Below are positions 4,846 to 38,231 of a DNA stretch of 64,000 bases, one piece after another. A program made the position numbers and the translations under genes. The number at the start of each line of letters is the position of its first letter. Position 1 is the first letter of the stretch. The stretch comes from an uncultured bacterium (GTDB lineage: Bacteria > Armatimonadota > Abditibacteriia > Abditibacteriales > Abditibacteriaceae): assembly GCA_963843795.1 (NCBI GenBank), contig CAWJLW010000006.1, positions 806,001-870,000 of the forward strand, written 5' to 3'. Under the pieces are notes generated by a model. The model did no database searches. It was not told the DNA's origin and saw only the letters and a program-made list of their open reading frames with translations.

Positions 4846-4933
4846 ATATCCGTTTTCGAAAGATTAGGGCTTTCGTGGTGCGGTGAGGCCGTGCCATACC
4901 ACGAAATTTCAAACGGCTGCTTCGGAGGTTAGA

Positions 4934-5770
4934 ATGTCCAATTCAGCAACGCATAATTCTGTCACAAAGATGAAATCGAAAAAGTCGCTCCGTCACGGCT
5001 TCACGCTCATCGAACTTTTAGTGGTCATAGCCATTATTGCTATTCTGGCGGCGATTTTGTTTCCGGTTTTTGCGCGTGCGCGCGAAAACGCGCGGCGAGC
5101 CAGTTGTTCGAGCAATTTGAAGCAGATGGGCTTGGCTGTTATGCAATACACGCAGGATTATGACGAGAAATTCCCGACCGGTTTGCAGAACAACTGGTGG
5201 GAGCAGACGTGGTATTGGAATGTCCAGCCGTATGTGAAAAGTGTGGATGTGTTTCGTTGCCCGAACGATCCGGGCGGTGTGGGCAACAATGTCAACTGGG
5301 CCGGGCCGCGCCTGAGTTATGTTTCCAATGGTTGGATTACCTATCGCAACGGTGCCAATGTGATGGCGGGCGTGATGGGCATTTCGCAAAGTTGGGTTAC
5401 GCCCAGTGCTGTTTCGCTGGCTGGCGTGAACAACACAGCGGGCACGGTGATGATGACCGAGCGCGACCACGTTTATCCCAATGCAAATGGCGTGGCAGGC
5501 AATGTTTATCGTTGGGGACCGGGTTGTATGATTAGCGGCGGCACGATTTGGAGCGATGTGACGCCGAACCAGTTGCCCGATGGAACGCGCGCCAAAACGA
5601 CCAACCCTTATGATCCCAACGGCCCTAACGGAGCCGTGATGGCAGTTCATCTGGAACGCGCTAATTTCTTGTTCGCCGATGGTCACGTCAAGAGCCTGAT
5701 TCCGAGCCAGACCAACCCCGACCCCAACAATCGCCCACAAGATAATATGTGGGACGCCACACGTCCTTGA
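4934..5770 (+). CDS. DUF1559 / prepilin-type N-terminal cleavage domain protein with H-X9-DG C-terminal motif
   Basis: [68 protein letters not shown] before ATG 4934. Confidence 0.92.
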
Positions 5771-5874
5771 ATAATTGCTGTTTGAAAACAGTTCAATCTT
5801 TCCAGATTGCATTGCAAAACCGCCACGAGAAAAGCAGGCCGGAAATTTCGTCGGTTATTTTTTCTCGTGGTGCC

Positions 5875-5927
5875 GGTTTGTAAAAGCAGGTTTGTAAAAG
5901 CAGGTTTGTAAAAGCAGGTTTGTAAAA
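5875..5927 (+). repeat. Tandem repeat of GGTTTGTAAAAGCA, about 3.8 copies
   Basis: Three exact 14-bp units plus an 11-bp partial unit. Confidence 0.95.
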
Positions 5928-5959
5928 TTTGTTTAAGCTGTATGTTGAAGGAACTATTT

Positions 5960-6205
5960 ATGTCATTTCTGAACCGTCAGTTTGCGCTGGGAATAACTGT
6001 GGCCTTGAGTGCTTTGCTGATTGGCGGCTGCGGAGGTTCGCAAAGCAGCGGGTTGAATCAAGAAGAAGCCGCGCAAATTAACCACGAACCTCGTCCTGGC
6101 GGCCCGCCGCCAGAAGCCAAAGCCTATATGGAAAAATCGAACAAAAGCACTTCTCCTGCAGGAGCACCCGCCGGAGCTGCCGCACCTGCCGCCTCTGTGC
6201 CCTGA
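5960..6205 (+). CDS. Small lipoprotein
   Basis: Signal peptide with lipobox IGG-C; Pro/Ala-rich tail; follows the DUF1559 gene. Confidence 0.7.
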   Translation: MSFLNRQFALGITVALSALLIGGCGGSQSSGLNQEEAAQINHEPRPGGPPPEAKAYMEKSNKSTSPAGAPAGAAAPAASVP

Positions 6206-6247
6206 ACAATTCAAGTGCAATCTTTCGAAGGAAAATGAAAGGTCGAG

Positions 6248-6276
6248 CGCTCTGCAAGTACTTGCAGAGCGTTTTT
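6248..6276 (+). terminator. Core-centred palindrome with T-tract
   Basis: CGCTCT-core-AGAGCG-TTTTT after the lipoprotein gene. Confidence 0.6.
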
Positions 6277-6370
6277 CAGGTTGAAATCTTGATTTGTGGT
6301 GTAAAATCAACGCGCATAAAATAACTACCTAGTTCGGCAAGTACTTGCAGAGCCGTTTTGGTCACGAATC

Positions 6371-7810
6371 ATGAAATCACTTTTATTTTCACGCCAACGT
6401 TTTGTATGCTCTATCGCCATTCTTTGTGCGCCTCTTATTTTTAGTAAGCTTTTCATTGAAGCGGCGCACGCGCAAAATTCCACCCCTTCCATTCCTATGA
6501 ATGCAACGACTTCAGTGCCGGCACCATCGCCTGTCGAATACGAGCGCTTGCGAGCGCAAGTCGATTACGCTTTGCAAGTTGATGTGCTGGGCCAATGGTT
6601 CCCACGCGCCCAAAGCGAGCAGGGCGGTTTCGACCAGATGTTCGACCAAAGCTGGCAGCGTGGCGATACCAGCGAACGTTCGCTGGTTTATCAGGCGCGC
6701 GTGACGTGGTTGGCCGCCCAAGCCGCGCTGCGCTATCCGCGCGAAGCCCCGATTTGGAAAGAGCGCGCTTTGCACGGCGCGCGTTTTCTGGCACAAATGT
6801 GGGACAGCAAAAATGGTGGCTTTTACTGGGCGCTGCAACGCGATTCTGATGGCAAATATCAGCCGCAGCGTGGCGGCGAAAAACACGTTTATGGCATTGC
6901 GTTCGCCATTTATGCCCTCAGCGCCGTTCACCAAGCCACCGGCGACGATTTGACGTTGCAACTGGCGCAAAACGCTTTCTACTGGCTGGAAACTCACGCT
7001 CACGACAAGAAAAACGGTGGTTACTACGAAGCCCTGACGCAAAGCGGTCTGCCAATCACTGTGCCTTTATCGGAGGAGCGAACTTCCGACGCCATCGGTA
7101 CGCGCTATGGCCACAAATCGATGAATTCGCACATTCATCTGCTCGAAGCGCTCAGTGCATTGCATCATGAGTGGCCAAACGCATTGTTAAATAAACGATT
7201 AAATGAAACTTTTCTTCTGGTGCGCGACACTATCGCAGTTGAGTCAGGCGCACTCAATCAATTCTTTACCGCTAATTGGAAAGCTTTGCCCGAACGCGAT
7301 TCTTTCGGCCACGACATAGAAACCGCGTATCTATTGATCGAGGCCGCTCACGAACTGCGCGCCAACAGTCCGCGCACCGGAATTATCGCGCGCGCGCTGG
7401 TCGATCACACTCTGGACTTCGGTTGGGACACGGAACACGGCGGCGTTTACGATGCCGGTGGCATTTTTCGCACGCCGCACGACGACGAAGACACTCGCAA
7501 AGTGTGGTGGACGCAAGCCGAATCTTTAAACGCGCTGCTTTTGATGCACAAACGCCACGGCGCACACACTGCGCGCTATTGGAACGCGTTTGTCAAACAG
7601 TGGAATTGGATACAACAATTTCAGACCGATAAGATGCATCGCGGTTGGTTTCCCGAAGTCGCCCGCGATGGCACGCCGCCCGTCGGTCGCAATAAAAGCG
7701 ATGGCTGGACTGAAGCCTATCATCAAGGTCGCGCACTTCTAAATGTCAGTGAAATGTTGAAAGAACTGGCTCAAAAGAAGGAGTTGCAACCAACGCAAAA
7801 TTCCTGTTAA
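6371..7810 (+). CDS. AGE-family (N-acylglucosamine/cellobiose 2-epimerase-like) protein with signal peptide
   Basis: QAR..W, KSMNSHIHLLEA, SFGHDIE, KVWWTQAE and YH.GR motifs. Confidence 0.88.
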   Translation: MKSLLFSRQRFVCSIAILCAPLIFSKLFIEAAHAQNSTPSIPMNATTSVPAPSPVEYERLRAQVDYALQVDVLGQWFPRAQSEQGGFDQMFDQSWQRGDTSERSLVYQARVTWLAAQAALRYPREAPIWKERALHGARFLAQMWDSKNGGFYWALQRDSDGKYQPQRGGEKHVYGIAFAIYALSAVHQATGDDLTLQLAQNAFYWLETHAHDKKNGGYYEALTQSGLPITVPLSEERTSDAIGTRYGHKSMNSHIHLLEALSALHHEWPNALLNKRLNETFLLVRDTIAVESGALNQFFTANWKALPERDSFGHDIETAYLLIEAAHELRANSPRTGIIARALVDHTLDFGWDTEHGGVYDAGGIFRTPHDDEDTRKVWWTQAESLNALLLMHKRHGAHTARYWNAFVKQWNWIQQFQTDKMHRGWFPEVARDGTPPVGRNKSDGWTEAYHQGRALLNVSEMLKELAQKKELQPTQNSC

Positions 7811-25302: not shown

Positions 25303-25484
25303 GATTTGTTTTTTCCTCGACTGGGCCAAAAGATGGGAAAAGTGTAAACCATTGTCCCCCGTCGTGACTTTCGATTCCCAAAAAGCTCCTGCAAGTACTT
25401 GCAGTGAGGTTTTGGCAAAAGGAAACGAAACGCGGACGGCGGGCTTGTTAAAATAAAAGCCAATTTGCTTTGAAGGTACTTTTT

Positions 25485-27224
25485 ATGAGAGATTCGGTTT
25501 CCCACACTATTCACGTCGAAGGCGATCATCAGCCGGTTTTCGACGTTGCCGCTGCCAACCCCACCACGCGCGATGTGCCGCCGTGCATCTTGACAATTTT
25601 CGGTGCGACTGGCGATTTGACGCGCCGTAAACTCATGCCCGCACTCTACAACTTGGAAGCGCTGGGCTTGCTGCCAGAAAAATTCGTCGTCGTTGGTTTC
25701 GGGCGCAGCGAGCGCGAACTGGATAAGTTTCGCGCCAGTTTAAAAAGCGGCGTGCAAGAGTTCGCGCGCCTGCCTTACAAAGAAGCGACGTGGAAATTAT
25801 TGGAAGACAAAATTTTCTATCAGCAGGGCGCTTACGGCGCGCCCGAATCGCATCGCGATTTGGACAAACGGTTGGAAGAATTGGCCAAAGAGTTCGGAAC
25901 CGGCGGCAATCGGATGTATTATCTGGCCACGCCGCCCGAAGAATTCGATGATGTCATTGAAAATCTGGGACAGCTCAAAGGCAAAAATCGCGATGACGGT
26001 TGGCGTCGTTTGATCGTCGAAAAACCGTTCGGGCGCGACCTCAAATCGGCGCAGGCTTTGAACGGTTTGCTGTCCAAATACTTCACGGAAAACGAAGTGT
26101 TCCGCATCGACCATTATCTGGGCAAAGAAACCGTGCAGAACATTCTTGCACTGCGCTTTGCCAACTCGATCTGGGAGCCGATCTGGAACAACCATTACAT
26201 CGACCATCTGCAAATCGTGGTCGCCGAAGAAGTCGGCGTCGGTCTGCGCGGCGGCTACTATGAAACCAATGGCGCACTGCGTGATATGGTCGTCAATCAT
26301 ATGATGCAAGTACTTTCGCTGGTTTGTATGGAGCCGCCGGTCGCGCTGGATGGCAACGCGATTCGCGATGAAAAAGTGAAAGTGCTGCGCGCGATTCGTC
26401 CGTTTTCTCAAGAGCAAGTGCTGCAAAACACGGTGCGCGGCCAATACAAAGGTTATCGCGATGTTGAAGGTGTCGATCCAGCATCCAAAACTGAAACTTA
26501 TGTCGCGATGAAATTGATGGTCGATAACTGGCGCTGGAGTGGCGTGCCGATTTATCTGCGTCATGGCAAAGCGCTGAAAAAGCGCGCGACCGAAGTCGTG
26601 GTGCGTTGGAAAGATACTCCGTATGTGTTGTTCAACGATCAGGTTAATCGCGTGAAAAGCAATATGCTGATTATGCGCATTCAACCCAACGATGGTTTCG
26701 CGCTGCGCACCAATGCCAAGGTTCCCGGTTCGGGCATGGAAATTCGCGATGTGCAGATGGATTTCGATTACAGCGAAGCCTTTGGCGCCGAGCCGCCCGA
26801 AGCCTACGAACGTTTGTTGCAAGACGCGATGTTGGGCGATGGCACGCTGTTCACGCGCCGCGATGAAGCCGAAGTCGCGTGGAGCATCATGGACCCGATT
26901 TTAGCCGCGTGGCGCCACACTTCGGCACCGTTTTCCTACGAGCGCGGCTCGTGGGGGCCAGACGAAGCCGACGAATTTTTGGCTTCTGACCGTCGGCGCT
27001 GGCATCAGCCGCAAATTTTGCCATCCAAGCACGGCGAATTGCAGGAAACTGCCGCCGCGCTCAAGGGCGCTGAAAGCAAAAATGGCAAAAGCGAAGGCGC
27101 TAAAATCGAAGGCGCTGACAAAGCGGAATCTAAATCCGAGAAAAACGCCGATAATAAAAAATCGGGCTCTTCGGAAACCAAATCTGAAACTAAAGACGAC
27201 AAAACCAGCGAGGCGAAAAAATGA
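25485..27224 (+). CDS. zwf: Glucose-6-phosphate 1-dehydrogenase with a charged C-terminal tail
   Basis: GATGDL, EKPFG, RIDHYLGKE and RIQP. Confidence 0.97.
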   Translation: MRDSVSHTIHVEGDHQPVFDVAAANPTTRDVPPCILTIFGATGDLTRRKLMPALYNLEALGLLPEKFVVVGFGRSERELDKFRASLKSGVQEFARLPYKEATWKLLEDKIFYQQGAYGAPESHRDLDKRLEELAKEFGTGGNRMYYLATPPEEFDDVIENLGQLKGKNRDDGWRRLIVEKPFGRDLKSAQALNGLLSKYFTENEVFRIDHYLGKETVQNILALRFANSIWEPIWNNHYIDHLQIVVAEEVGVGLRGGYYETNGALRDMVVNHMMQVLSLVCMEPPVALDGNAIRDEKVKVLRAIRPFSQEQVLQNTVRGQYKGYRDVEGVDPASKTETYVAMKLMVDNWRWSGVPIYLRHGKALKKRATEVVVRWKDTPYVLFNDQVNRVKSNMLIMRIQPNDGFALRTNAKVPGSGMEIRDVQMDFDYSEAFGAEPPEAYERLLQDAMLGDGTLFTRRDEAEVAWSIMDPILAAWRHTSAPFSYERGSWGPDEADEFLASDRRRWHQPQILPSKHGELQETAAALKGAESKNGKSEGAKIEGADKAESKSEKNADNKKSGSSETKSETKDDKTSEAKK

Positions 27225-27967
27225 GCGACAACACCAATCAATTGGGCGAAAGCCGCGAGATTTACCCGACACAAAGCGATGTTGTGCGCGCCTTTGCCGA
27301 GCGTTTGGTCGAAGTGGCGCGCGAAGCTATATTGGCGCGAGGGCGTTTCATTTTTGCGCTTTCGGGTGGCAGCACGCCCAAAGAATTGTTCGCGCTTCTG
27401 GCGAGCGATGAATTTCGTGAACAATTCGATTGGTCGAAAATCGTCATCGTGTGGGGTGATGATCGCGCGGTCGGGCCGGATGATGAACTGTCGAACTATC
27501 GCATGGCCAAACTCGCGCTTTTAGATAAAGTTCCCGTGTTGCCAGAAAACGTGCATCGGATGCGCGGCGAGGCCGAAGATTTGGAAGAAGCGGCCAAAGA
27601 ATATGGCTTGCTGATGCAAGAGTTGGGCGCATTAGATGTGGCCTTGATGGGAATGGGGCCGGACGGACACACGGCGAGCTTATTTCCACATTCGCCGCAA
27701 CTCAACGAAACCAAACATCGCTGTGTCGCCACGCCGATTGCATCACACGAACCTCATGTGCGGCGCTTGACGCTGACATATCGCATGTTCAATGATTCGC
27801 GTCATTTGTGGATGCTGGTATGCGGCGCGAGCAAGGCCCAACGCACGGCGCAAGTACTTGCCGGGCCGATTGTGCCACAGGAATTGCCCGTACAAGGCTT
27901 GCGCGGAAGCGAAAGCAACGATTACGTGTGGTGGATGGACGAAGCGGCGGCAAGCGCATTGAATTGA
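27221..27967 (+). CDS. pgl: 6-phosphogluconolactonase
   Basis: LSGGSTP, SNY and GMGPDGHTASLFP; ATGA overlap with zwf. Confidence 0.95.
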   Translation: MSDNTNQLGESREIYPTQSDVVRAFAERLVEVAREAILARGRFIFALSGGSTPKELFALLASDEFREQFDWSKIVIVWGDDRAVGPDDELSNYRMAKLALLDKVPVLPENVHRMRGEAEDLEEAAKEYGLLMQELGALDVALMGMGPDGHTASLFPHSPQLNETKHRCVATPIASHEPHVRRLTLTYRMFNDSRHLWMLVCGASKAQRTAQVLAGPIVPQELPVQGLRGSESNDYVWWMDEAAASALN

Positions 27968-27983
27968 AAACGTATTCATCGAG

Positions 27984-28041
27984 AGCGCAAAAAGCGCGTG
28001 GCAAGTATCTGCGCAAGTACTTGCCACGCGCTTTTTGCGCT
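27984..28041. terminator. Palindrome with tandem cores (one degenerate)
   Basis: 17-bp perfect arms around GCAAGTATCTGC-GCAAGTACTTGC. Confidence 0.75.
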
Positions 28042-28100: not shown

Positions 28101-29852
28101 ATGGAGAACACAATGAAACGATTACGATTTGGGCGGTGCGCGTTATGGGCACTGTGTGCCTTGCTACTGGTGGGCTTATCGCCTGCGCGCGCGCAGTTCG
28201 GCTTGCCCAACGATGCGCCGGAAAACGTTGTGACGGTGCGCGCTTTAGCGCCCACGACCGGCATTAAGGCCAATTCAAAAAGTACGCTGACGCTCGAATT
28301 AACAATCGTCGAGCCGTTTCATATCAACGCCAATCCTGCCAGCGAAGATTATCTTATCCCAACTGTCGCTGTGGTCAAACCCGCTCCCGGTTTGAAAGTT
28401 AGCAAACCCATTTATCCGAAACCGGTTTTAAAGAAATTCAGTTTTTACGAAGGAATGCTCAAGGTTTACGAAGGCACTGTACAGATCAAAATTCCGCTCG
28501 AAACCGACGGCAATTTCAAACCGACAGCACTTACAGGTACGCTGAAATATCAGGCTTGCAACGATCAAGCGTGTTTAGCACCCAAAACTCTCGATTGGAA
28601 ATTGAAATTAGCGGGCACCGCGCCGCCTGCGCCTAAGCCACCAATCAAAAATCCGCCGATTATCGAAAAATCGACCGGAGTTACCAGCCCCAATGACAGC
28701 AATAATAATTCGCCCGGTGCAACGATTTCTGGCGCGGCTGACGACGCAGCAGCAGTACAATTGCGCGAGCGTTTTGGTGTCAAAGGTTTGCCGACAGTGA
28801 TTTTTATCGACGCCAGCGGTAAAGCGCGACCGGATTTGCGCGCTGGCGAGGAACTCACTTTGGCCGGTATGACGCAGAAAATGGACGCGCTGAAAAGCGG
28901 CCAGCAATTATCTGTGGACGCAGACAGCGCTGCAGGCTGGCAAACGCGCTTGAAATCAGCTTCGATTTGGTGGCAAATTGGTCTGGTTTTTATTGGCGGT
29001 TTGCTGTTGAATCTAACTCCGTGCGTGTACCCGATGATTCCGATTACCATCGGGTATTTTGGTGCGCAAAGCGAAGGTAAAACCGGCAAAACGTTTTCTC
29101 TCGCCTTGCTTTACGTTTTGGGTCTGGCGCTGGTTTATTCCACGCTTGGCGTTTTCGCAGCTTTCACCGGCAACTTGTTCGGTTCGCTGATGCAAAGCTC
29201 GTGGGTGATTGGTTTCGTGGCGGTTATCTTCTTCGCGCTTTCTCTGTCGATGATGGGCGTTTTTACGCTCAACCCGCCGCAAGCGTTGATGCAACAAAGT
29301 GGTGCCAAAAAAGGTGCGTTGGGTGCTCTGGCGATGGGCGCGCTGCTTGGTATCGTAGCCGCGCCCTGCGTTGGCCCGGTCGTGGCCGCTTTGTTGGCTT
29401 ATGTCGGCGCACGCGGCGAGCCAGCATTAGGTTTCATCTTGTTTTTCGCGCTCTCAATTGGGCTAGGTTTGCCGTATTTGTTGCTGGGCACGTTTAGTGG
29501 TGCGGTGAAATCGCTGCCACGTTCGGGAATGTGGCTCGAAAAATCGAAGAAATTCTTTGCCATTCCTTTGCTGGCAGTTTCATTCTATTATGCTTATCTC
29601 GCCGTGAAGCCCGCTCTGGCTACCGCACCATCCAGCGCCGCGACCGGCGAACATTGGGCACCGGCGACGTTGGCCAAATTAGAAGGCGCCAAGCAAAAAG
29701 GCCAGCCAGTGATTCTCGATTTTCGCGCCGATTGGTGCTTGCCGTGCTTGAAAATGGAACGCGAAATTTTCTCCAGGAACGAAGTAGAACAAGCTGCCGT
29801 AGCAAATAATATTCAATTGTTGCAAGTCGATCTCACGTCGCAAAGTCAGTAG
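28101..29852 (+). CDS. dsbD: DsbD-family thiol:disulfide interchange protein with a split thioredoxin domain
   Basis: nDsbD YQACNDQACLAP; TM domain TPCVYPM and APCVGP; WCLPC thioredoxin motif. Confidence 0.88.
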   Translation: MENTMKRLRFGRCALWALCALLLVGLSPARAQFGLPNDAPENVVTVRALAPTTGIKANSKSTLTLELTIVEPFHINANPASEDYLIPTVAVVKPAPGLKVSKPIYPKPVLKKFSFYEGMLKVYEGTVQIKIPLETDGNFKPTALTGTLKYQACNDQACLAPKTLDWKLKLAGTAPPAPKPPIKNPPIIEKSTGVTSPNDSNNNSPGATISGAADDAAAVQLRERFGVKGLPTVIFIDASGKARPDLRAGEELTLAGMTQKMDALKSGQQLSVDADSAAGWQTRLKSASIWWQIGLVFIGGLLLNLTPCVYPMIPITIGYFGAQSEGKTGKTFSLALLYVLGLALVYSTLGVFAAFTGNLFGSLMQSSWVIGFVAVIFFALSLSMMGVFTLNPPQALMQQSGAKKGALGALAMGALLGIVAAPCVGPVVAALLAYVGARGEPALGFILFFALSIGLGLPYLLLGTFSGAVKSLPRSGMWLEKSKKFFAIPLLAVSFYYAYLAVKPALATAPSSAATGEHWAPATLAKLEGAKQKGQPVILDFRADWCLPCLKMEREIFSRNEVEQAAVANNIQLLQVDLTSQSQ

Positions 29853-29874: not shown

Positions 29875-29912
29875 AAAAAGGCCGCCGCGATAATTATCGC
29901 GGCGGCCTTTTT
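29875..29912. terminator. 38-bp perfect palindrome without the 12-bp core; bidirectional terminator
   Basis: AAAAAGGCCGCCGCGATAA/TTATCGCGGCGGCCTTTTT between convergent genes. Confidence 0.8.
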
Positions 29913-29952
29913 TCGGCGTTGCAAGTACTTGCAACAACGTTTTGCAATTCAA

Positions 29953-32192: not shown

Positions 32193-32844
32193 AGCAAGGC
32201 ACAGGCGAAACATTGACCTCGCAACAGTAGGAATTTACGAGCGTATAATGGTTGCCACGTTTAGTTTTTATATTGAGATATGCGCGACGCGAGGGACAAC
32301 TCGAACCAGAACGTGCTGCCCTGGCTCAGAGTGCTAAGGGCGTCGGACGTACTCGCACCGCGACAACAGACGGCACAACTCCCAGCGGTCTTATTGAGTC
32401 TGAGCCATAAACACAACGCGCAGGCGAATGTCTAAAAGGGAAGTTGAGCCAGGCGTCATGAAAGTGTTGAACCACCGGCCAGCGATTAGACCTCGCAGAT
32501 AATCCCCTTATCTACTATCCAAAATGCGCGGCGCAAAAATTTTCCGCAAGTACCTGCGCCGCCCGTGATGTGCTACAGGGCGCCGAAAGCGCTGAGTTTG
32601 ATAAACGCACCTCATCACAGCGCGCCATCATTAGCGGCAGCCTTGGCCGCCAAAACGCGTCGTGCGTTGCTACACTGTGGGATTCACAGCTATCTTGATT
32701 TCCGATTAGCGCCGCAAGTACTTGCGAAACTACTTAGATAGGAAGAACCAAAAATCATCTGAGTTGTCTAGGGATTTGGACAAGATCGAAACGAAATGCA
32801 AATCGGAACGAGATTCAGGTGGGAACAAAATTCAGGCAAGACTT

Positions 32845-33363
32845 ATGAAAGCTAAACAACGCCGTTACGCGCTGGGCACATTGTTGATTGTTGGTTCGAT
32901 GGGCGTTCTGCTGGCCTCCAGCATGAAATCGAGCGCGCTGCGCGCCGTGCCGGTCGGAGAAATTTGTAGCGCCGACCAAACGGCTTCTTCCTATGTTGGC
33001 CAAACCGTGCGCATCGTGGGTTGGGTTGGCAAAGACCCCGTGCGCCGCGAATTGGTAAAAAGCAGTTCGGGTGCGACTTACGTTAACCATTTCGAGGTCG
33101 TGGATAAAGATAAGAAAGTACAGGTTTCGTTCTCCGATATTTTGCCCGACACTTTTCGACAAGGCTCGCCGGTTCAAGTCGATGGACTTTACAGCGCCGC
33201 TGGCCAAATGCAGGCTCATCGCGTGTTGACCAAATGCCCGTCGAAGTATGAAGCCGGGCAAGGTCAGGAAGAAACGGGCAAGTCCGTAAACGGTTCGCCC
33301 TTGAAAACTTCCAACGCTCAGGCTTTCAACAGCAGCGCCAGTACGACCACCATGGTTCAGTAA
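32845..33363 (+). CDS. ccmE: Heme chaperone CcmE, CxxxY type
   Basis: TM anchor, LPDTF and LTKCPSKY; upstream of ccmF. Confidence 0.88.
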   Translation: MKAKQRRYALGTLLIVGSMGVLLASSMKSSALRAVPVGEICSADQTASSYVGQTVRIVGWVGKDPVRRELVKSSSGATYVNHFEVVDKDKKVQVSFSDILPDTFRQGSPVQVDGLYSAAGQMQAHRVLTKCPSKYEAGQGQEETGKSVNGSPLKTSNAQAFNSSASTTTMVQ

Positions 33364-33421
33364 CTTTCATTCCAAACGCCCTGCAAGTACTTGCAGGAGA
33401 TAATCGCCCCAAATTCTTCTC

Positions 33422-35626
33422 ATGTTGCCATCCTTCGGCTACGGCCTGCTGCTTCTGGCGCTGCTTAGCGCGCTTTACAATATCGGCGCGACTGCGTTTA
33501 CCGCTTTCGCCGCGCGCCGCAACCGCGCGGTCCAAACCGCGCCCCATGCCGATGACGCAACGGAGGAAGTCGAGCGTCCCGAATGGCAAACTTCGCTGCT
33601 CGAGTCGGCGCACTCGGCAACTTTGGCCGTGTGGGCGCTGATAACCCTTGCGTTTCTCACGCTGATTTTTCTGTTTATCAACGATGATTTCAGCGTGAAC
33701 TATGTGTGGGCGCACTCGGCCAAAGCTCAGCCGTTCATCTACAAAATTTCTGCCGCGTGGGGCGGGCAATCCGGCTCACTGCTGATGTGGGTTTGGATGC
33801 TTTCCACCTACGGAGCCGCCATCGCTTTGACCGGTCGCCGTGCAATTCCCCACATTTTGCCGACAGCGCTGGCCATCAACAATGTGACGGTCGCGTTTTT
33901 CCTTTCTTTGATTGCCTTTAACGAAAATCCGTTTCGTCTGGTGGAAACTGCCGTGCCTGTCGATGGTCGTGGTCTTAATCCATTGTTGCAAAATTATTGG
34001 ATGCAGATTCATCCGCCGACGCTTTACGCCGGTTACGTTGGCTGCGCGGTGCCGTTTGCCCTCGCGATGGCCGCCTTGCTACATGGACGTTTCGATAAGG
34101 AATGGCTGGCTTTCATAAGGCGCTGGACGTTGTTTCCGTGGATGGTTTTAACCGTTGGCATCGTGATGGGTGGTGCGTGGGCCTATGAAACGTTAGGTTG
34201 GGGCGGCTACTGGGCATGGGACCCGGTCGAAAACGCTAGCCTGATGCCATGGCTGACCGCGACCGCGTTTTTGCATTCGATTATCATTCAAGCGCGTCGG
34301 GGGATGTTGAAAAACTGGAACATGGTTCTGGTGACATTGACGTTTTTGCTGTCGGTTTTCGGCACTTATCTGACGCGTTCGGGCGTGGTTTCCAGCGTAC
34401 ATTCGTTTGCTGAAAGTGACATTGGCGTTTATTTCTTGGGCTTTCTGGGCGCTGTTCTGATTTTGTCGTTTGGACTCATTGTGTGGCGTCGTGATTTGGT
34501 GAGCAGTCCGAACGAAATCGAATCTCCCCTTTCGCGCGAAGGCGCGTTTCTGTTGAACAACTGGATTTTGTTGGGCGCGGCGTTCGCAGTTTTGTGGGGC
34601 ACGGTTTATCCGGCCCTCAGCGAAGCTATCGGCAACCAGAAAGTTTCGGTCGGCGCGAGTTATTTCAATAGCGTGATGGTGCCGCTGGGATTGGTTTTGT
34701 TGGCACTTACCGGCGTCGGACCTTTGATGGCGTGGCGGCGCACTTCGCCGCGCGCGATGTTGAAAATTTTCGCGTGGCCACTGGCTTTGGCTCTCATCGC
34801 TTCGCCCGGATTGTGGGCGTTGGCGCAGTGGCAAACCGGCGCGGCCACTTCGTTTTGCCTCGCGGTTTTCGTGACCGCAGCGATTGTTTCCGAATTCGTC
34901 CGCGGTACGCGTGCGCGCTCCAACATGACGGGCGAGGGTGCGGGCGAAAGTTTTCTCAATTTAATTGCGAAGAATAAAGGCCGTTATGGCGGTTACATGG
35001 TTCATCTGGGCATCGTGATGATGTTCGTTGGCTTCGCCGGATCGTTTGGCAACATCGTCAAAGGGCCAATTTTGTTGAAGCCGGGCGAAACAATGCAAGT
35101 CGGCGAATATACGCTGGTTTACAAAGGTTTAGGCCGACCAGCCAAAGGCCAACTTTCGCCCGAAAAATCCGATGAGACCGGTGCGATTGTGCAAATTCAG
35201 CGCGCTGGCAAACCGCTGCTCGATGGGCGCGGCCAACCGTTTGTGATGCAGCCTCACATCGATACTTTCAAGCAAGCAGCAATCGTGCAGGAAGAAGCTA
35301 TGGCTGGACAGCCACCACAAACCGCGCGTCGCCCTGACATTATGAGCACGTTCGCGCATGACTTATATCTGGTGCTCGATTCTTATAACGAACAAAATCA
35401 GGAAGCGTCGATCAAGGCGTATCTCAACCCGCTCGTGATGTGGATTTGGGTTTCGCAATTGTTCTTTCTGGGCGGCACTATCATCGCGATGTTGCCCAAC
35501 AGAAAACGTGTGGCGCAGGAAGAAACCGAAACGGTGCGCCGTGGAAATTCTCAAACCGCCCGAACACCAATTAGTGCACAAACAGCGACGAAAAGCAACG
35601 CGGCGACGCGAAGTTCATCTCGATAA
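33422..35626 (+). CDS. ccmF: Cytochrome c heme lyase CcmF
   Basis: WGGQSGSLL, IHPP, WAYETLGWGGYWAWDPVEN and SVHSF. Confidence 0.96.
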   Translation: MLPSFGYGLLLLALLSALYNIGATAFTAFAARRNRAVQTAPHADDATEEVERPEWQTSLLESAHSATLAVWALITLAFLTLIFLFINDDFSVNYVWAHSAKAQPFIYKISAAWGGQSGSLLMWVWMLSTYGAAIALTGRRAIPHILPTALAINNVTVAFFLSLIAFNENPFRLVETAVPVDGRGLNPLLQNYWMQIHPPTLYAGYVGCAVPFALAMAALLHGRFDKEWLAFIRRWTLFPWMVLTVGIVMGGAWAYETLGWGGYWAWDPVENASLMPWLTATAFLHSIIIQARRGMLKNWNMVLVTLTFLLSVFGTYLTRSGVVSSVHSFAESDIGVYFLGFLGAVLILSFGLIVWRRDLVSSPNEIESPLSREGAFLLNNWILLGAAFAVLWGTVYPALSEAIGNQKVSVGASYFNSVMVPLGLVLLALTGVGPLMAWRRTSPRAMLKIFAWPLALALIASPGLWALAQWQTGAATSFCLAVFVTAAIVSEFVRGTRARSNMTGEGAGESFLNLIAKNKGRYGGYMVHLGIVMMFVGFAGSFGNIVKGPILLKPGETMQVGEYTLVYKGLGRPAKGQLSPEKSDETGAIVQIQRAGKPLLDGRGQPFVMQPHIDTFKQAAIVQEEAMAGQPPQTARRPDIMSTFAHDLYLVLDSYNEQNQEASIKAYLNPLVMWIWVSQLFFLGGTIIAMLPNRKRVAQEETETVRRGNSQTARTPISAQTATKSNAATRSSSR

Positions 35627-35629
35627 ATT

Positions 35630-36133
35630 ATGAAAAATCTCGCTAAAACTTTCTGCAAGTACTTGCAGGTCGTATTTCTAGCTGTAATATGTGCGTTTGC
35701 CACGCAAGCTGCTCAGGCACAAACTGCAGATTCCGGGCTGGCGCAGCGTTTGAATCACGAAATTATCTGCCCGTGTCCCGATTGTGGCAAGCAAGCCATT
35801 GACCAGTGCGCTCCTGGCTGCGCCGATGGCAAGAAATATCGTGAGGAAGTCGCGGCGCAATTGGAGCAGGGAGCCGATGAAAAGGGTGTGCTGAAGTATT
35901 TCCAGAAAACCTATGGCGCGGCCTCGCTGGCTTCGCCGCCGCAAGAAGGTTTCGGTATCACCTCGAAATGGTTGCCGTTAGGCGCGCTGTTGCTGGGCGC
36001 GTTGCCGCTGTGGGCCATGACGCGCAACAAAAATCGCCAAAAATCACTCCGTCGCAAGGAACCTGTTAAGCCGTCGCACGATGAAAAGGCCGATGATTCG
36101 CTGGAAGATGCTTTGCGCGATTTCGATTATTAA
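35630..36133 (+). CDS. CcmH/NrfF-like cytochrome c biogenesis protein
   Basis: Signal peptide, IICPCPDC...C...C, F..TYG and C-terminal TM. Confidence 0.78.
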   Translation: MKNLAKTFCKYLQVVFLAVICAFATQAAQAQTADSGLAQRLNHEIICPCPDCGKQAIDQCAPGCADGKKYREEVAAQLEQGADEKGVLKYFQKTYGAASLASPPQEGFGITSKWLPLGALLLGALPLWAMTRNKNRQKSLRRKEPVKPSHDEKADDSLEDALRDFDY

Positions 36134-36187: not shown

Positions 36188-36799
36188 ATGTCGATTGTTC
36201 TGATTTGTCTGGCTTCTCTGGTGACGGCGTTTTACATCGCCGCACCCTTTTGGCGTGCGCGGCGCGAAAAAAACGCGCCGCGTAGCGGTTCGCGTGATGC
36301 TTCACGCGCGCTTTCGAGCCGTAAAGCCGCGCTGGCATCGCTTGAAGCGCGCCGTGATAACCTGTTGCGCGAAATCAAAGATTTGGAATTCGACCGTCGC
36401 ATGGGGAAAGTCGAACCCGACGAATACAGTGCGATGCGCGGCGAACTTACCTCGCAAGCCAAAGCTGTACTGGTGCAAATCGAAGCTTTGCGTGCCAAAA
36501 TTGCCGCACCCCAAACCAAGTCCAAGCCCAAATCCGCTCCTCTTGAAAAACCAACCTCGCGCCAATTAGAAAGCGACGTTGAAAACGAAATCCTTATTGC
36601 GCGCGCGCGTCGTCAGCGTGAACTCGATATCGAGAGCGAAGTTCTCATCTCTCGTGCGCGCCGCCGTTTAGCGCAGAAACGCTCGCCCGAAGCAGCGCGC
36701 TGGCGCTGCGATTGCGGGCGCACTATGCAAGCGAGCGATGCGTTTTGCGCTTCTTGTGGCGCGCCGCGTCCACGCGAAATCGCTGTGGTTACTGCGTAA
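36188..36799 (+). CDS. CcmI-N-like protein with a C-terminal zinc ribbon
   Basis: IKDLEFDRRMGK...EY and CDCG...FCASCG. Confidence 0.7.
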   Translation: MSIVLICLASLVTAFYIAAPFWRARREKNAPRSGSRDASRALSSRKAALASLEARRDNLLREIKDLEFDRRMGKVEPDEYSAMRGELTSQAKAVLVQIEALRAKIAAPQTKSKPKSAPLEKPTSRQLESDVENEILIARARRQRELDIESEVLISRARRRLAQKRSPEAARWRCDCGRTMQASDAFCASCGAPRPREIAVVTA

Positions 36800-36842
36800 A
36801 CACGGCACAAATTAGGGTCAAAATCTCTTCCAAGTACTTCTC

Positions 36843-38231
36843 ATGAAATTCAAGTTTTTGTTGCTCATTCTTGTCAATGTTCTAGCTCTGATGAGTGTCC
36901 TAGTAACCGGCGCGCGTGTGATGGCCGCGCCGATTGCAGTCAAAGGCGTTGCGCTCAATGCGACGTTAATGAAACCGGCTTCGGGTATAAAATTAGAACT
37001 GATTCGGCCCGCCGCATCGGGCGATGGCAGCCTGTTGGGTGAAACGACCGTCGATAAAGACGGGCGCTTCGCTTTTCCGGCGCGCGAAATGGCCGCTGAT
37101 GATTTGCTGATAGTGCGTGGCGCGTATCAAGGTTATGGTTATCTGGCGACGGCATTCGATGGACAGGCGCGCTTGAAAGAATTCGGCGTCACGGTGAATC
37201 CGCAACAGGTGCAGTTGACGGTTTACGAAGCTTCGAAAAAGCCGCCGAAACTGCAATTTCAGGTTCACCATCTGGCTATCGAATCAGCAGCCGATGGCTT
37301 GAAATGTATCGAGCGCATCGTGGTCAATAACCCATCGAAAAGTACTTATGTTGGTGTCGGCGATGTCGATGGCACGGTGCTTCTGGATATTCCTAAAACC
37401 GCCAAAAATATCAAAATGGATCCGAAAATTCCCGGCAAGTTAGTGCAAACTTCGCATGGTTGGATGGCGACGACGCCGATTGCGCCGAGCGCTTATACCG
37501 ATAAAAATCCATTGGCCGGACCAAACGCGATTATTTTCAGTTATACGATGGAGTGGCCCAGCGCCCTTCCGTGGGCGCGTCAAGTGGATGTGTCGCAGAA
37601 GATTCTTTATCCCACCAAATTTTTCTTCATCGCGCGCAAAACCGATGACCGTGTTTTGCAGGTCAGCGCACCTCAACTCAGTCCTGATACCGAACAAGAA
37701 TTGCCCATTGACGGCCAATCCGAAGTTCGTCTGGTCAATTCCATCGGGCGCCCGATGGGCGATGAAGCTGCGCTGTCTCCCGATACGCAGCTCAAAATGA
37801 CAATCAAGCGCGAAGTTAATGCCTTGTTCTGGGTTTTTGTGGCGTTTATTGGCGCACTTTTGTTAGGGGTTCCTCTCGTTTTGCGCGCTTCCAAACGTCG
37901 TCCCTCCCAACTCGCTGAGGGCGACGAAGATGGTTACCCCGACGATGAATTTGACGATGAAGAAAGTTGGTCGGATGACGCGGAACCGGCACACGCAGCG
38001 AGCGTTGTTAGCGCCGCCGCAACCAATGAAAGCTCTGCAAAACGCGCGCAAGGGCAAGGTAACGCTTCCAGTTTTTCGCCCTTGCAAACTTCGCTACAGG
38101 CGCAGGCTTTGATTGAAGAAATCGCACAGTTGGACGACGAATTCGAGCGCGGCGAAATTGATGAAACCACTTATCAAACACAGCGTAAACAACGCAAGTC
38201 GCGCTTGTTGCAGCAGTTGTCGAAGCCGTAA
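36843..38231 (+). CDS. Exported beta-sandwich membrane protein with a C-terminal SHOCT-like motif (ccm-associated)
   Basis: Signal peptide, TTVDKDGRFAF, TM near the C-terminus and LDDEFERGEIDETTY. Confidence 0.65.
   Translation: MKFKFLLLILVNVLALMSVLVTGARVMAAPIAVKGVALNATLMKPASGIKLELIRPAASGDGSLLGETTVDKDGRFAFPAREMAADDLLIVRGAYQGYGYLATAFDGQARLKEFGVTVNPQQVQLTVYEASKKPPKLQFQVHHLAIESAADGLKCIERIVVNNPSKSTYVGVGDVDGTVLLDIPKTAKNIKMDPKIPGKLVQTSHGWMATTPIAPSAYTDKNPLAGPNAIIFSYTMEWPSALPWARQVDVSQKILYPTKFFFIARKTDDRVLQVSAPQLSPDTEQELPIDGQSEVRLVNSIGRPMGDEAALSPDTQLKMTIKREVNALFWVFVAFIGALLLGVPLVLRASKRRPSQLAEGDEDGYPDDEFDDEESWSDDAEPAHAASVVSAAATNESSAKRAQGQGNASSFSPLQTSLQAQALIEEIAQLDDEFERGEIDETTYQTQRKQRKSRLLQQLSKP

Follow-up and report, generated by a model that had tools for sequence, protein, structure and literature searches.

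The window, by which we mean the whole 64,000-nucleotide stretch of DNA analysed, carries a gene for a DsbD-type protein that stops partway through a thioredoxin domain, which raises the question of where the rest of that domain lies and whether the protein can work as a DsbD. Its open reading frame encodes, in order, a predicted signal peptide, nDsbD (the alpha domain), the second half of cDsbD (the gamma domain) with the predicted cis-Pro, a six-helix membrane domain (the beta domain), and the first half of cDsbD with WCLPC, followed by the stop codon (Table 1). We refer to this order as wrapped. The second ATG, at 28113 and with GGAG ahead of it, is the likelier start, and the database copy of the protein (P0002) has 579 amino acids. 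The Pfam profiles DsbD_N and DsbD_TM matched residues 91-163 and 290-496; thioredoxin profiles at residues 525-582 stopped partway (PF13899 and PF00085 reached only the first 60-75% of the profile), and a weak thioredoxin C-terminal match fell at residues 213-241. The missing half of the thioredoxin was not encoded downstream of the gene. The protein missed the cutoff of the NCBIfam whole-protein DsbD model PRK00293 (224.3 bits versus 330), a score that the swapped domain order would lower. Since domain order and helix count depart from the features of the family, it is not an ordinary DsbD. The hairpin at the end of the gene was not listed by a scan for consensus terminators, and a promoter scan returned sites no commoner than by chance.

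Table 1. Features of the wrapped dsbD gene and its surroundings (positions in the window)
Feature	Position	Strand	Basis
Whole gene, DsbD with wrapped, permuted gamma domain	28101..29852	+	Single unbroken ORF, 583 aa
Predicted Sec signal peptide	28113..28193	+	Basic N-region, hydrophobic core, A-R-A cleavage site; hydrophobic segment 8-26
nDsbD (alpha) immunoglobulin-like domain, C153 and C158	28218..28610	+	PF11412, 36 bits (cutoff 25)
Pro/Ser-rich flexible linker, nDsbD to thioredoxin C-half	28611..28730	+	pLDDT <50 at residues 173-209
Thioredoxin C-half (alpha3, cis-Pro loop with P231 at 28791, beta4, beta5, alpha4)	28731..28898	+	Match to 1uc7 71-107; predicted strand pairing with N-half
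Tether of conserved length, native thioredoxin C terminus to TM1	28899..28964	+	Predicted helix 277-286 (AlphaFold)
Six-helix DsbD/CcdA membrane domain, C308 (PCVYP) and C423 (PCVGP)	28965..29609	+	PF02683, 166.8 bits; match to CcdA 5vkv
Thioredoxin N-half (beta1, alpha1, beta2, WCLPC with C546 and C549, alpha2, beta3), end of protein	29649..29849	+	1uc7 25-72; PF13899, PF00085
Hairpin with A/T tails directly 3' of stop, likely terminator	~29875-29913	+	17 pairs, fold -34 kcal/mol
ccmE, ccmF, ccmH, likely downstream reductant users, separate operon	32722..36133	+	Pfam CcmE, CcmF_C, CcmH

We located the two halves by comparing the protein with PDB sequences (phmmer). Residues 531-580 matched residues 25-72 of Escherichia coli cDsbD (1uc7), and residues 212-248 matched residues 71-107, the latter match being weak alone (13.9 bits, i-E value = 0.15). 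The two matches are complementary and almost without overlap, and the C-half match starts where the N-half match stops. The C-half, QLRERFGVKGLPTVIFIDASGK...MTQKMDAL (residues 220-264, ~28758-28892), stands ahead of the membrane domain, and the protein ends in ...DFRADWCLPC...LLQVDLTSQSQ*. The first observation of the sequence-only reading, that the protein ends with the first half of a thioredoxin while the second half precedes the transmembrane domain, was thus borne out by both matches. The gamma halves occupy residues 211-266 and 517-583, swapped and with the beta domain between them, rather than forming a contiguous C-terminal gamma; every part of the thioredoxin is present once, with the counterpart of 1uc7 71-107 before that of 25-72. 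The break in gamma follows strand beta3 and separates the two motifs of the thioredoxin fold; it falls at what we take to be the site where DsbA-type insertions also sit, and about 6 to 10 loop residues are missing at the break compared with canonical sisters. The spans joining the parts differ in how constant they are: 26 to 89 residues from C158 to L221 in 54 relatives, 29 to 39 residues (median, 30) from A263 to Q292 in the 57 six-helix rows of the alignment, and 15 to 50 residues from the last helix to the N-half among relatives.

Next, we looked into whether the halves are predicted to fold together. AlphaFold modeled the whole protein with a pLDDT of 83 and a pTM of 0.64, with ten-residue block means of 87 to 98 over both halves. 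Modeled as two chains, the halves reached an ipSAE of 0.89, whereas the best of three controls scored 0.00; at least 94% of contacts were common to the runs, and the pLDDT of the partner was at least 89. Among solved pairs, 116 of 157 reached the mark used for ipSAE, as did 2 of 215 mismatched ones; with the alignment used, these figures are only approximate. Strand 536-541 paired with 232-237 in the two-chain model, and P231 contacted C549, as in thioredoxin. A second AlphaFold model, covering residues 208-583 (376 residues; pLDDT, 84; pTM, 0.71), was compared with 48,161 chains, and the one thioredoxin-type chain among the 50 matches listed was the circularly permuted DsbA cpDsbA Q100T99 (1un2; Z = 6.4, rmsd = 3.1, 103 residues aligned over model range 1-376). 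This Z is middling and within reach of common arrangements. The 103 aligned residues exceed the content of either half, and the thioredoxin fold is therefore complete in this model, which includes the membrane domain. Fold searches with the full-length model returned nDsbD and CcdA and no cDsbD chain, and Foldseek with the 376-residue model returned CcdA only (E value = 0.013); the missing cDsbD match carries no weight, because sequential aligners are unlikely to match a permuted domain whole. The co-folding result may be memory, because cDsbD structures have been solved and the fold is known to the models, and the alignment to 1un2 may likewise reflect memory of the fold. The gamma halves are thus predicted to fold into one thioredoxin domain, so that the AlphaFold check suggested earlier came out in favor of a single fold, and the description of a circularly permuted thioredoxin wrapped around a membrane domain agrees with both the swapped order and the predicted co-fold.

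Our main reading is that gamma is split after beta3 and swapped around the six-helix domain, and that the halves would form one external thioredoxin, with electrons relayed as in an ordinary DsbD; we give it a probability of roughly 0.88. We consider it unlikely that the halves instead assemble between two chains, as a domain-swapped dimer or oligomer. Such assembly is physically possible, as the two-chain model predicts binding between the halves, and the tether to the N-half varies as widely as noted above; against it, the single-chain model already closes the fold around the membrane domain, and two relatives whose thioredoxin is permuted but contiguous (P0058 and P0065) need no partner chain.

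Hydropathy gave a signal-peptide segment and six membrane segments, and the secondary structure of the AlphaFold model agreed with it; the same script gave eight or nine segments in eight-helix relatives. The six helices counted earlier therefore hold, and the protein has six by hydropathy and model where DsbD is expected to have eight. With an N terminus that is predicted to be exported and an even helix count, both thioredoxin halves would lie outside the membrane. The earlier argument that having six helices rather than eight puts the halves on the same side fails, however, since any even number suffices, and both eight-helix wrapped forms and six-helix canonical DsbDs exist. Helix number as the cause of the wrap was rejected: two of the three wrapped lineages have eight helices. 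Canonical-order six-helix DsbDs occur in the Armatimonadota family f31 and in the Verrucomicrobiae (L095-L099, L103, L104, and L106; L025 and L041; P0180, P0215, P0219, and P0254). Helices 7 and 8 seem to have been lost repeatedly, because the tree needs four changes for the six-helix trait. The membrane domain matched Thermus thermophilus CcdA (5vkv) both by sequence (E value = 5.8e-11) and by fold (Z = 7.0, rmsd = 4.2, 190 residues aligned), and it was 40 to 55% identical to those of DsbDs versus 22 to 25% to 5vkv.

We constructed trees from the membrane domain only, with free CcdAs left out. The six-helix wrapped proteins formed one clade (100/100; 99/98 in a second tree), and its sister was a group of canonical-order six-helix DsbDs of the same phylum (90/90; 98/96). 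The wrapped proteins of the Thermoanaerobaculia were nested among the canonical DsbDs of their own group (99/99), and their N-halves were 80 to 90% identical to that of canonical L052 versus 53 to 63% to the six-helix family. P0138 and P0266 made up a third wrapped lineage. A single clade of six- and eight-helix wrapped forms was rejected (AU test, P values = 0.005 and 0.0007), as was a single clade of the two eight-helix wrapped lineages (P value = 0.0006); these P values are somewhat generous, as the groups were set by architecture, yet a quick tree had been seen before testing. One origin within the Thermoanaerobaculia group was not rejected (p-AU = 0.38 and 0.33), and several origins inside that group, also considered, are unsupported. 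The breaks of all wrapped lineages fall within about 10 residues of the same loop. From these sequences, the wrapped order appears to have arisen about three times; reversals, or recombination affecting the membrane domain, could produce a similar pattern.

Most likely, the C-half changed place inside an ordinary dsbD gene; the simplest mechanism would be duplication and then complementary loss. This is the simpler history because the nearest relatives of the membrane domain are ordinary full-length DsbDs. Among the proteins classified, none had two whole gamma domains around beta, the intermediate expected from duplication; in P0157 and P0216, gamma lies wholly ahead of beta. The contiguous permutants P0058 and P0065 nest inside the six-helix wrapped clade (97/84 branch), which suggests a second move of the C-half. 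The sequence-only reading had pictured a CcdA-like domain inserted into a permuted thioredoxin, a picture that sits poorly with a membrane domain nearest to ordinary DsbDs, in trees without free CcdAs. The specific history in which a free CcdA was inserted once into an already permuted thioredoxin is less likely again than assembly between chains: contiguous permuted thioredoxins do exist in DsbD, and the membrane domain is six-helix, as in CcdA, but P0058 and P0065 look derived given where they nest, the sister group has the canonical order (98/96), and the same AU tests (p-AU = 0.005 and 0.0007, again without free CcdAs) reject a single clade for all wrapped forms.

To return to the gamma domain itself, P231, C308, C423, D540, W545, C546, C549, and D577 were invariant in 57 of 57 six-helix rows, and F235, G240, and R243 were likewise found in all 57. 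E. coli cDsbD, in which the counterpart of C546 has a pKa of 10.6, has a triad, D455/E468/Q488, with Q, R, and K as natural variants at Q488 (excerpts of PMC3961690). D540, E553, and position 575 correspond to these three residues; E553 was E in 55 of the 57 rows and D in 2, and position 575 was Q, R, or K in 56 of 57. The alpha-domain cysteines were almost as constant (C153 in 51/51 and C158 in 53/54 rows with a residue there), and the distance from D577 to the end of the protein was 5 to 8 residues in 57/57 rows. Compared with four relatives, the C-half showed a pN of 0.26 to 0.34 with a pS of 0.65 to 0.79 (uncorrected and near saturation); its pN was similar to that of the N-half and below that of nDsbD. 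Both gamma halves look functional by these comparisons. There is accordingly very little chance that the split gamma is vestigial and that the protein acts as a carrier of the CcdA type to which an alpha domain is attached, served by a separate exported thioredoxin. The 16 Redoxin-family genes of the genome could stand in for gamma, and CcdA needs no fused gamma domain (excerpts of PMC3322552), but the CxxC, cis-Pro, and D/E/Q triad are invariant or nearly so in the 57 rows, both halves are more conserved than nDsbD, and the break never changes position.

We then assessed how widely the wrapped order is shared. The homolog set held the best 120 of 3406 matches listed; one was the window's own protein, and the other 119 were classified. 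Sixty-two of them, among these best of 3406 matches, had the order C-half, membrane domain, N-half (59 six-helix and 3 eight-helix, with 6 of the 62 cut at the N terminus), two (P0058 and P0065) had both halves after the membrane domain and swapped, 53 were canonical, and 2 were too partial, so the search for homologs of the same order that had been proposed found many. The few named six-helix matches belong to the Abditibacteriota/Armatimonadota. Among 80 named genome loci, 6 were wrapped (1 from the Abditibacteriaceae and 5 eight-helix ones from the Thermoanaerobaculia/Acidobacteriota), and 1 more was truncated; 144 new representatives at 50% identity yielded 2 wrapped proteins and 2 with an intact thioredoxin before the membrane domain, and a junction search brought in 116 new proteins, 2 of them wrapped. 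We sampled 151 genomes of the phylum: 85 had a match, and the wrapped order occurred in 3 of the best 30 loci, each belonging to the family of the window's genome. That family has the wrapped form in 5 of 27 genomes; most of the rest have a DsbD class that is more distant, and the 3 of these checked by Pfam had an intact thioredoxin. The gamma domain of this class (L119-L138) gives no W/F-C-x-x-C match. The best 30 loci of the 63-genome family of G164 comprised 7 wrapped, 22 canonical, and 1 truncated, and in G164 itself the wrapped protein was the only DsbD-family gene found. A local misassembly or annotation artefact is very unlikely, and the least probable of the alternatives, because 62 of 119 homologs share the order: the contig does end in a compositionally foreign tail, but the same order and breakpoint recur in 59 other six-helix proteins from several independent sources at 49 to 86% identity and in four other genomes of the window's family.

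Several other arrangements were seen among the relatives. The C terminus of P0058 (~425-567) and P0065 (~440-562) is a contiguous circularly permuted thioredoxin, with C-half, short linker, and N-half. P0157 and P0216 have an intact thioredoxin ahead of the membrane domain (alpha-gamma-beta) and occupy two unrelated positions in the tree. At L035 (~4876-7377), the frame of a wrapped-type gene of the Thermoanaerobaculia stops before the CxxC half, possibly through a frameshift or sequencing error. Other DsbD fusions (L050, P0139, and P0285; P0066-P0070) have an extra C-terminal thioredoxin or Redoxin domain or two alpha domains.

The possibility that the architecture is undescribed stood up to the literature searched (mostly open papers and main texts), in which we found no natural gamma domain described as split or permuted. 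Three classes are described in PMC3322552, and the string "permut" is absent from its main text, although its Table S1 could list such architectures; excerpts of PMC3091736, citing Qi and Grishin 2005, place circular permutations within the wider thioredoxin-like fold. We conclude that the wrapped DsbD is a real, conserved, and recurrent rearrangement for which we found no earlier description. In practice, such proteins are labeled simply DsbD or CcdA, and profile scans detect no more than a truncated thioredoxin in them.

E. coli DsbD (DipZ; cDsbD 1uc7 and 2fwe, nDsbD 1l6p and 1jpe) resembles the window's protein, in which a signal peptide is predicted, in having an Ig-fold alpha domain, a membrane domain with two Pro-Cys motifs, and a thioredoxin gamma with CxxC, cis-Pro, and the equivalents of D455/E468/Q488. 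The top matches of the alpha domain by Foldseek and VIA were nDsbD (Z = 11 to 11.8, rmsd = 2.4 to 3.8). The two differ in order (alpha, beta, gamma in E. coli; alpha, gamma C-half, beta, gamma N-half here), in helices (eight versus six), and in attachment, with gamma on two tethers and alpha joined to gamma in the window's protein. The alpha cysteines are spaced CX4C here and CX5C in E. coli DsbD. CcdA has a like six-helix membrane domain with the same two cysteines, but it is that domain alone, whereas the window's protein has alpha and gamma fused to it. ScsB is likewise a three-domain membrane reductant conduit, and the alpha domain matches part of ScsB-alpha (6c29; Z = 11.6, tied with nDsbD). 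The Lys at +8 after the first membrane Cys is diagnostic of ScsB in the excerpted PMC3322552; in contrast, T316 stands at +8 here and is invariant in 60 rows, and the alpha domain has ~130 amino acids versus 247 in the ScsB chain.

Two engineered systems share parts of this design. In cpDsbA Q100T99, the thioredoxin fold is also opened between its N- and C-terminal motifs with the C-half first, but that protein is man-made and soluble, with a short linker joining the native termini, whereas the window's protein is natural and its linker is a membrane domain of ~250 residues. Termini-restrained membrane proteins, such as DsbB and others fitted with split sfGFP (PMC11205269), also carry self-associating halves of a soluble domain on both ends of a membrane protein with an even number of helices; there, the halves serve as an inert coupler in an engineered stabilizing trick; here, the coupler is the catalytic domain itself.

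We also evaluated the genomic context. The sequence-only reading had the protein feeding the nearby Ccm system, which is plausible by family role, but the ccm genes start 2.9 kb downstream of dsbD, past the hairpin and three opposite-strand genes, and of the 16 Redoxin-family matches in the genome (candidates for CcmG), none lies within the window. No CcmG-like gene was found in the ccm cluster. ccmE lies at a similar distance in a similar arrangement in L003; G019 keeps the DUF948 neighbor, with no ccmE among nine ORFs scanned. By analogy, a link of the wrapped DsbD to the ccm genes is plausible. Two same-strand genes without a clear Pfam family follow ccmH (36188-38231), one with a weak C-terminal zinc-ribbon match, and two further PF01578 genes lie at 2.87 Mb of the same contig. 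Directly upstream on the same strand are zwf and a 6-phosphogluconolactonase-family gene, of a kind that supplies NADPH (25470-27967). A link to this pair was rejected, as the upstream genes differ in L003 and G019.

The wrapped gene is the only DsbD-family gene in the window's genome (G000) outside a GC-rich contig tail; the genome's other DsbD is canonical and lies in that tail, at 61 to 70% GC versus 53% for the contig. The GC fraction rises from ~0.47 to 0.6-0.7 from ~3,599,000 of the contig to its end (L001 and L114), and the tail holds, besides the canonical DsbD, a DsbA-YkuD fusion, two c-type cytochromes, and a two-component pair. It is either a foreign island or a chimeric join, and probably foreign. 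Because the tail DsbD is probably foreign, the wrapped protein would be the only native DsbD-family carrier in the assembly, from which another DsbD-family gene could be absent because G000 is 92% complete. A 12-base palindrome, GCAAGTACTTGC, is the commonest 12-mer of the 4.3-Mb genome (2567 copies; expectation from base composition, 0.25), with 45 copies in the window (e.g., at 28013, 29921, and 32714). It often centers terminator-like hairpins, also occurs inside genes such as pgl and ccmH, and was absent from 28 short loci (1.5 to 3.7 kb) of family relatives. The palindrome stops at 3,590,136 of the contig, is missing from the GC-rich tail, and resembles a HIP1- or REP-type repeat.

Following the DsbD electron cascade set out in excerpts of PMC3322552 and bioRxiv 10.1101/2022.09.07.506916, electrons would pass from cytoplasmic thioredoxin to C308/C423, on to C546/C549 and C153/C158, and then to exported thioredoxin-like proteins; the direction of flow and substrates of the CcmG or DsbC type are proposed by analogy. 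Domain order, the conservation of the six cysteines, the cis-Pro residue, and the triad, and presence in many genomes are observed. Gamma would be held by two linkers, one to TM1 and one to the last helix, and alpha would hang from gamma and not from TM1, whereas alpha and gamma of E. coli DsbD are each on one ~20-residue linker (excerpts of bioRxiv 10.1101/2022.09.07.506916). Most likely, the protein functions like any other DsbD, only with its tethers rewired. Its repeated origin fits selection and equally fits a cut that is easily tolerated. More tentatively, and in our view doubtful, the wrapped form may be an adaptation reached at least three times, in which gamma clamps both ends of the membrane domain and bears nDsbD on its new N terminus, an order that would follow electron flow (beta, gamma, alpha) and couple gamma docking to movement of the membrane domain. 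If so, nature would have supplied a DsbD with restrained termini, one well suited to full-length structure determination and to testing directly how far gamma must travel. According to excerpts of the same preprint, electron transfer and the mobility of the outer domains in DsbD were worked out mainly from isolated domains and models, and no full-length DsbD was among the PDB matches. A gamma tied to both ends of the membrane domain limits models that need a roaming gamma, and an alpha tied to gamma limits those that need alpha on TM1. The near-identical canonical and wrapped sister genes of one Acidobacteriota family provide matched pairs for experiments; wrapped L164 with canonical L147 or L171 is an eight-helix pair. 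More broadly, the family offers a clear natural case of a redox-active thioredoxin permuted repeatedly at one breakpoint, including a later contiguous permutant.
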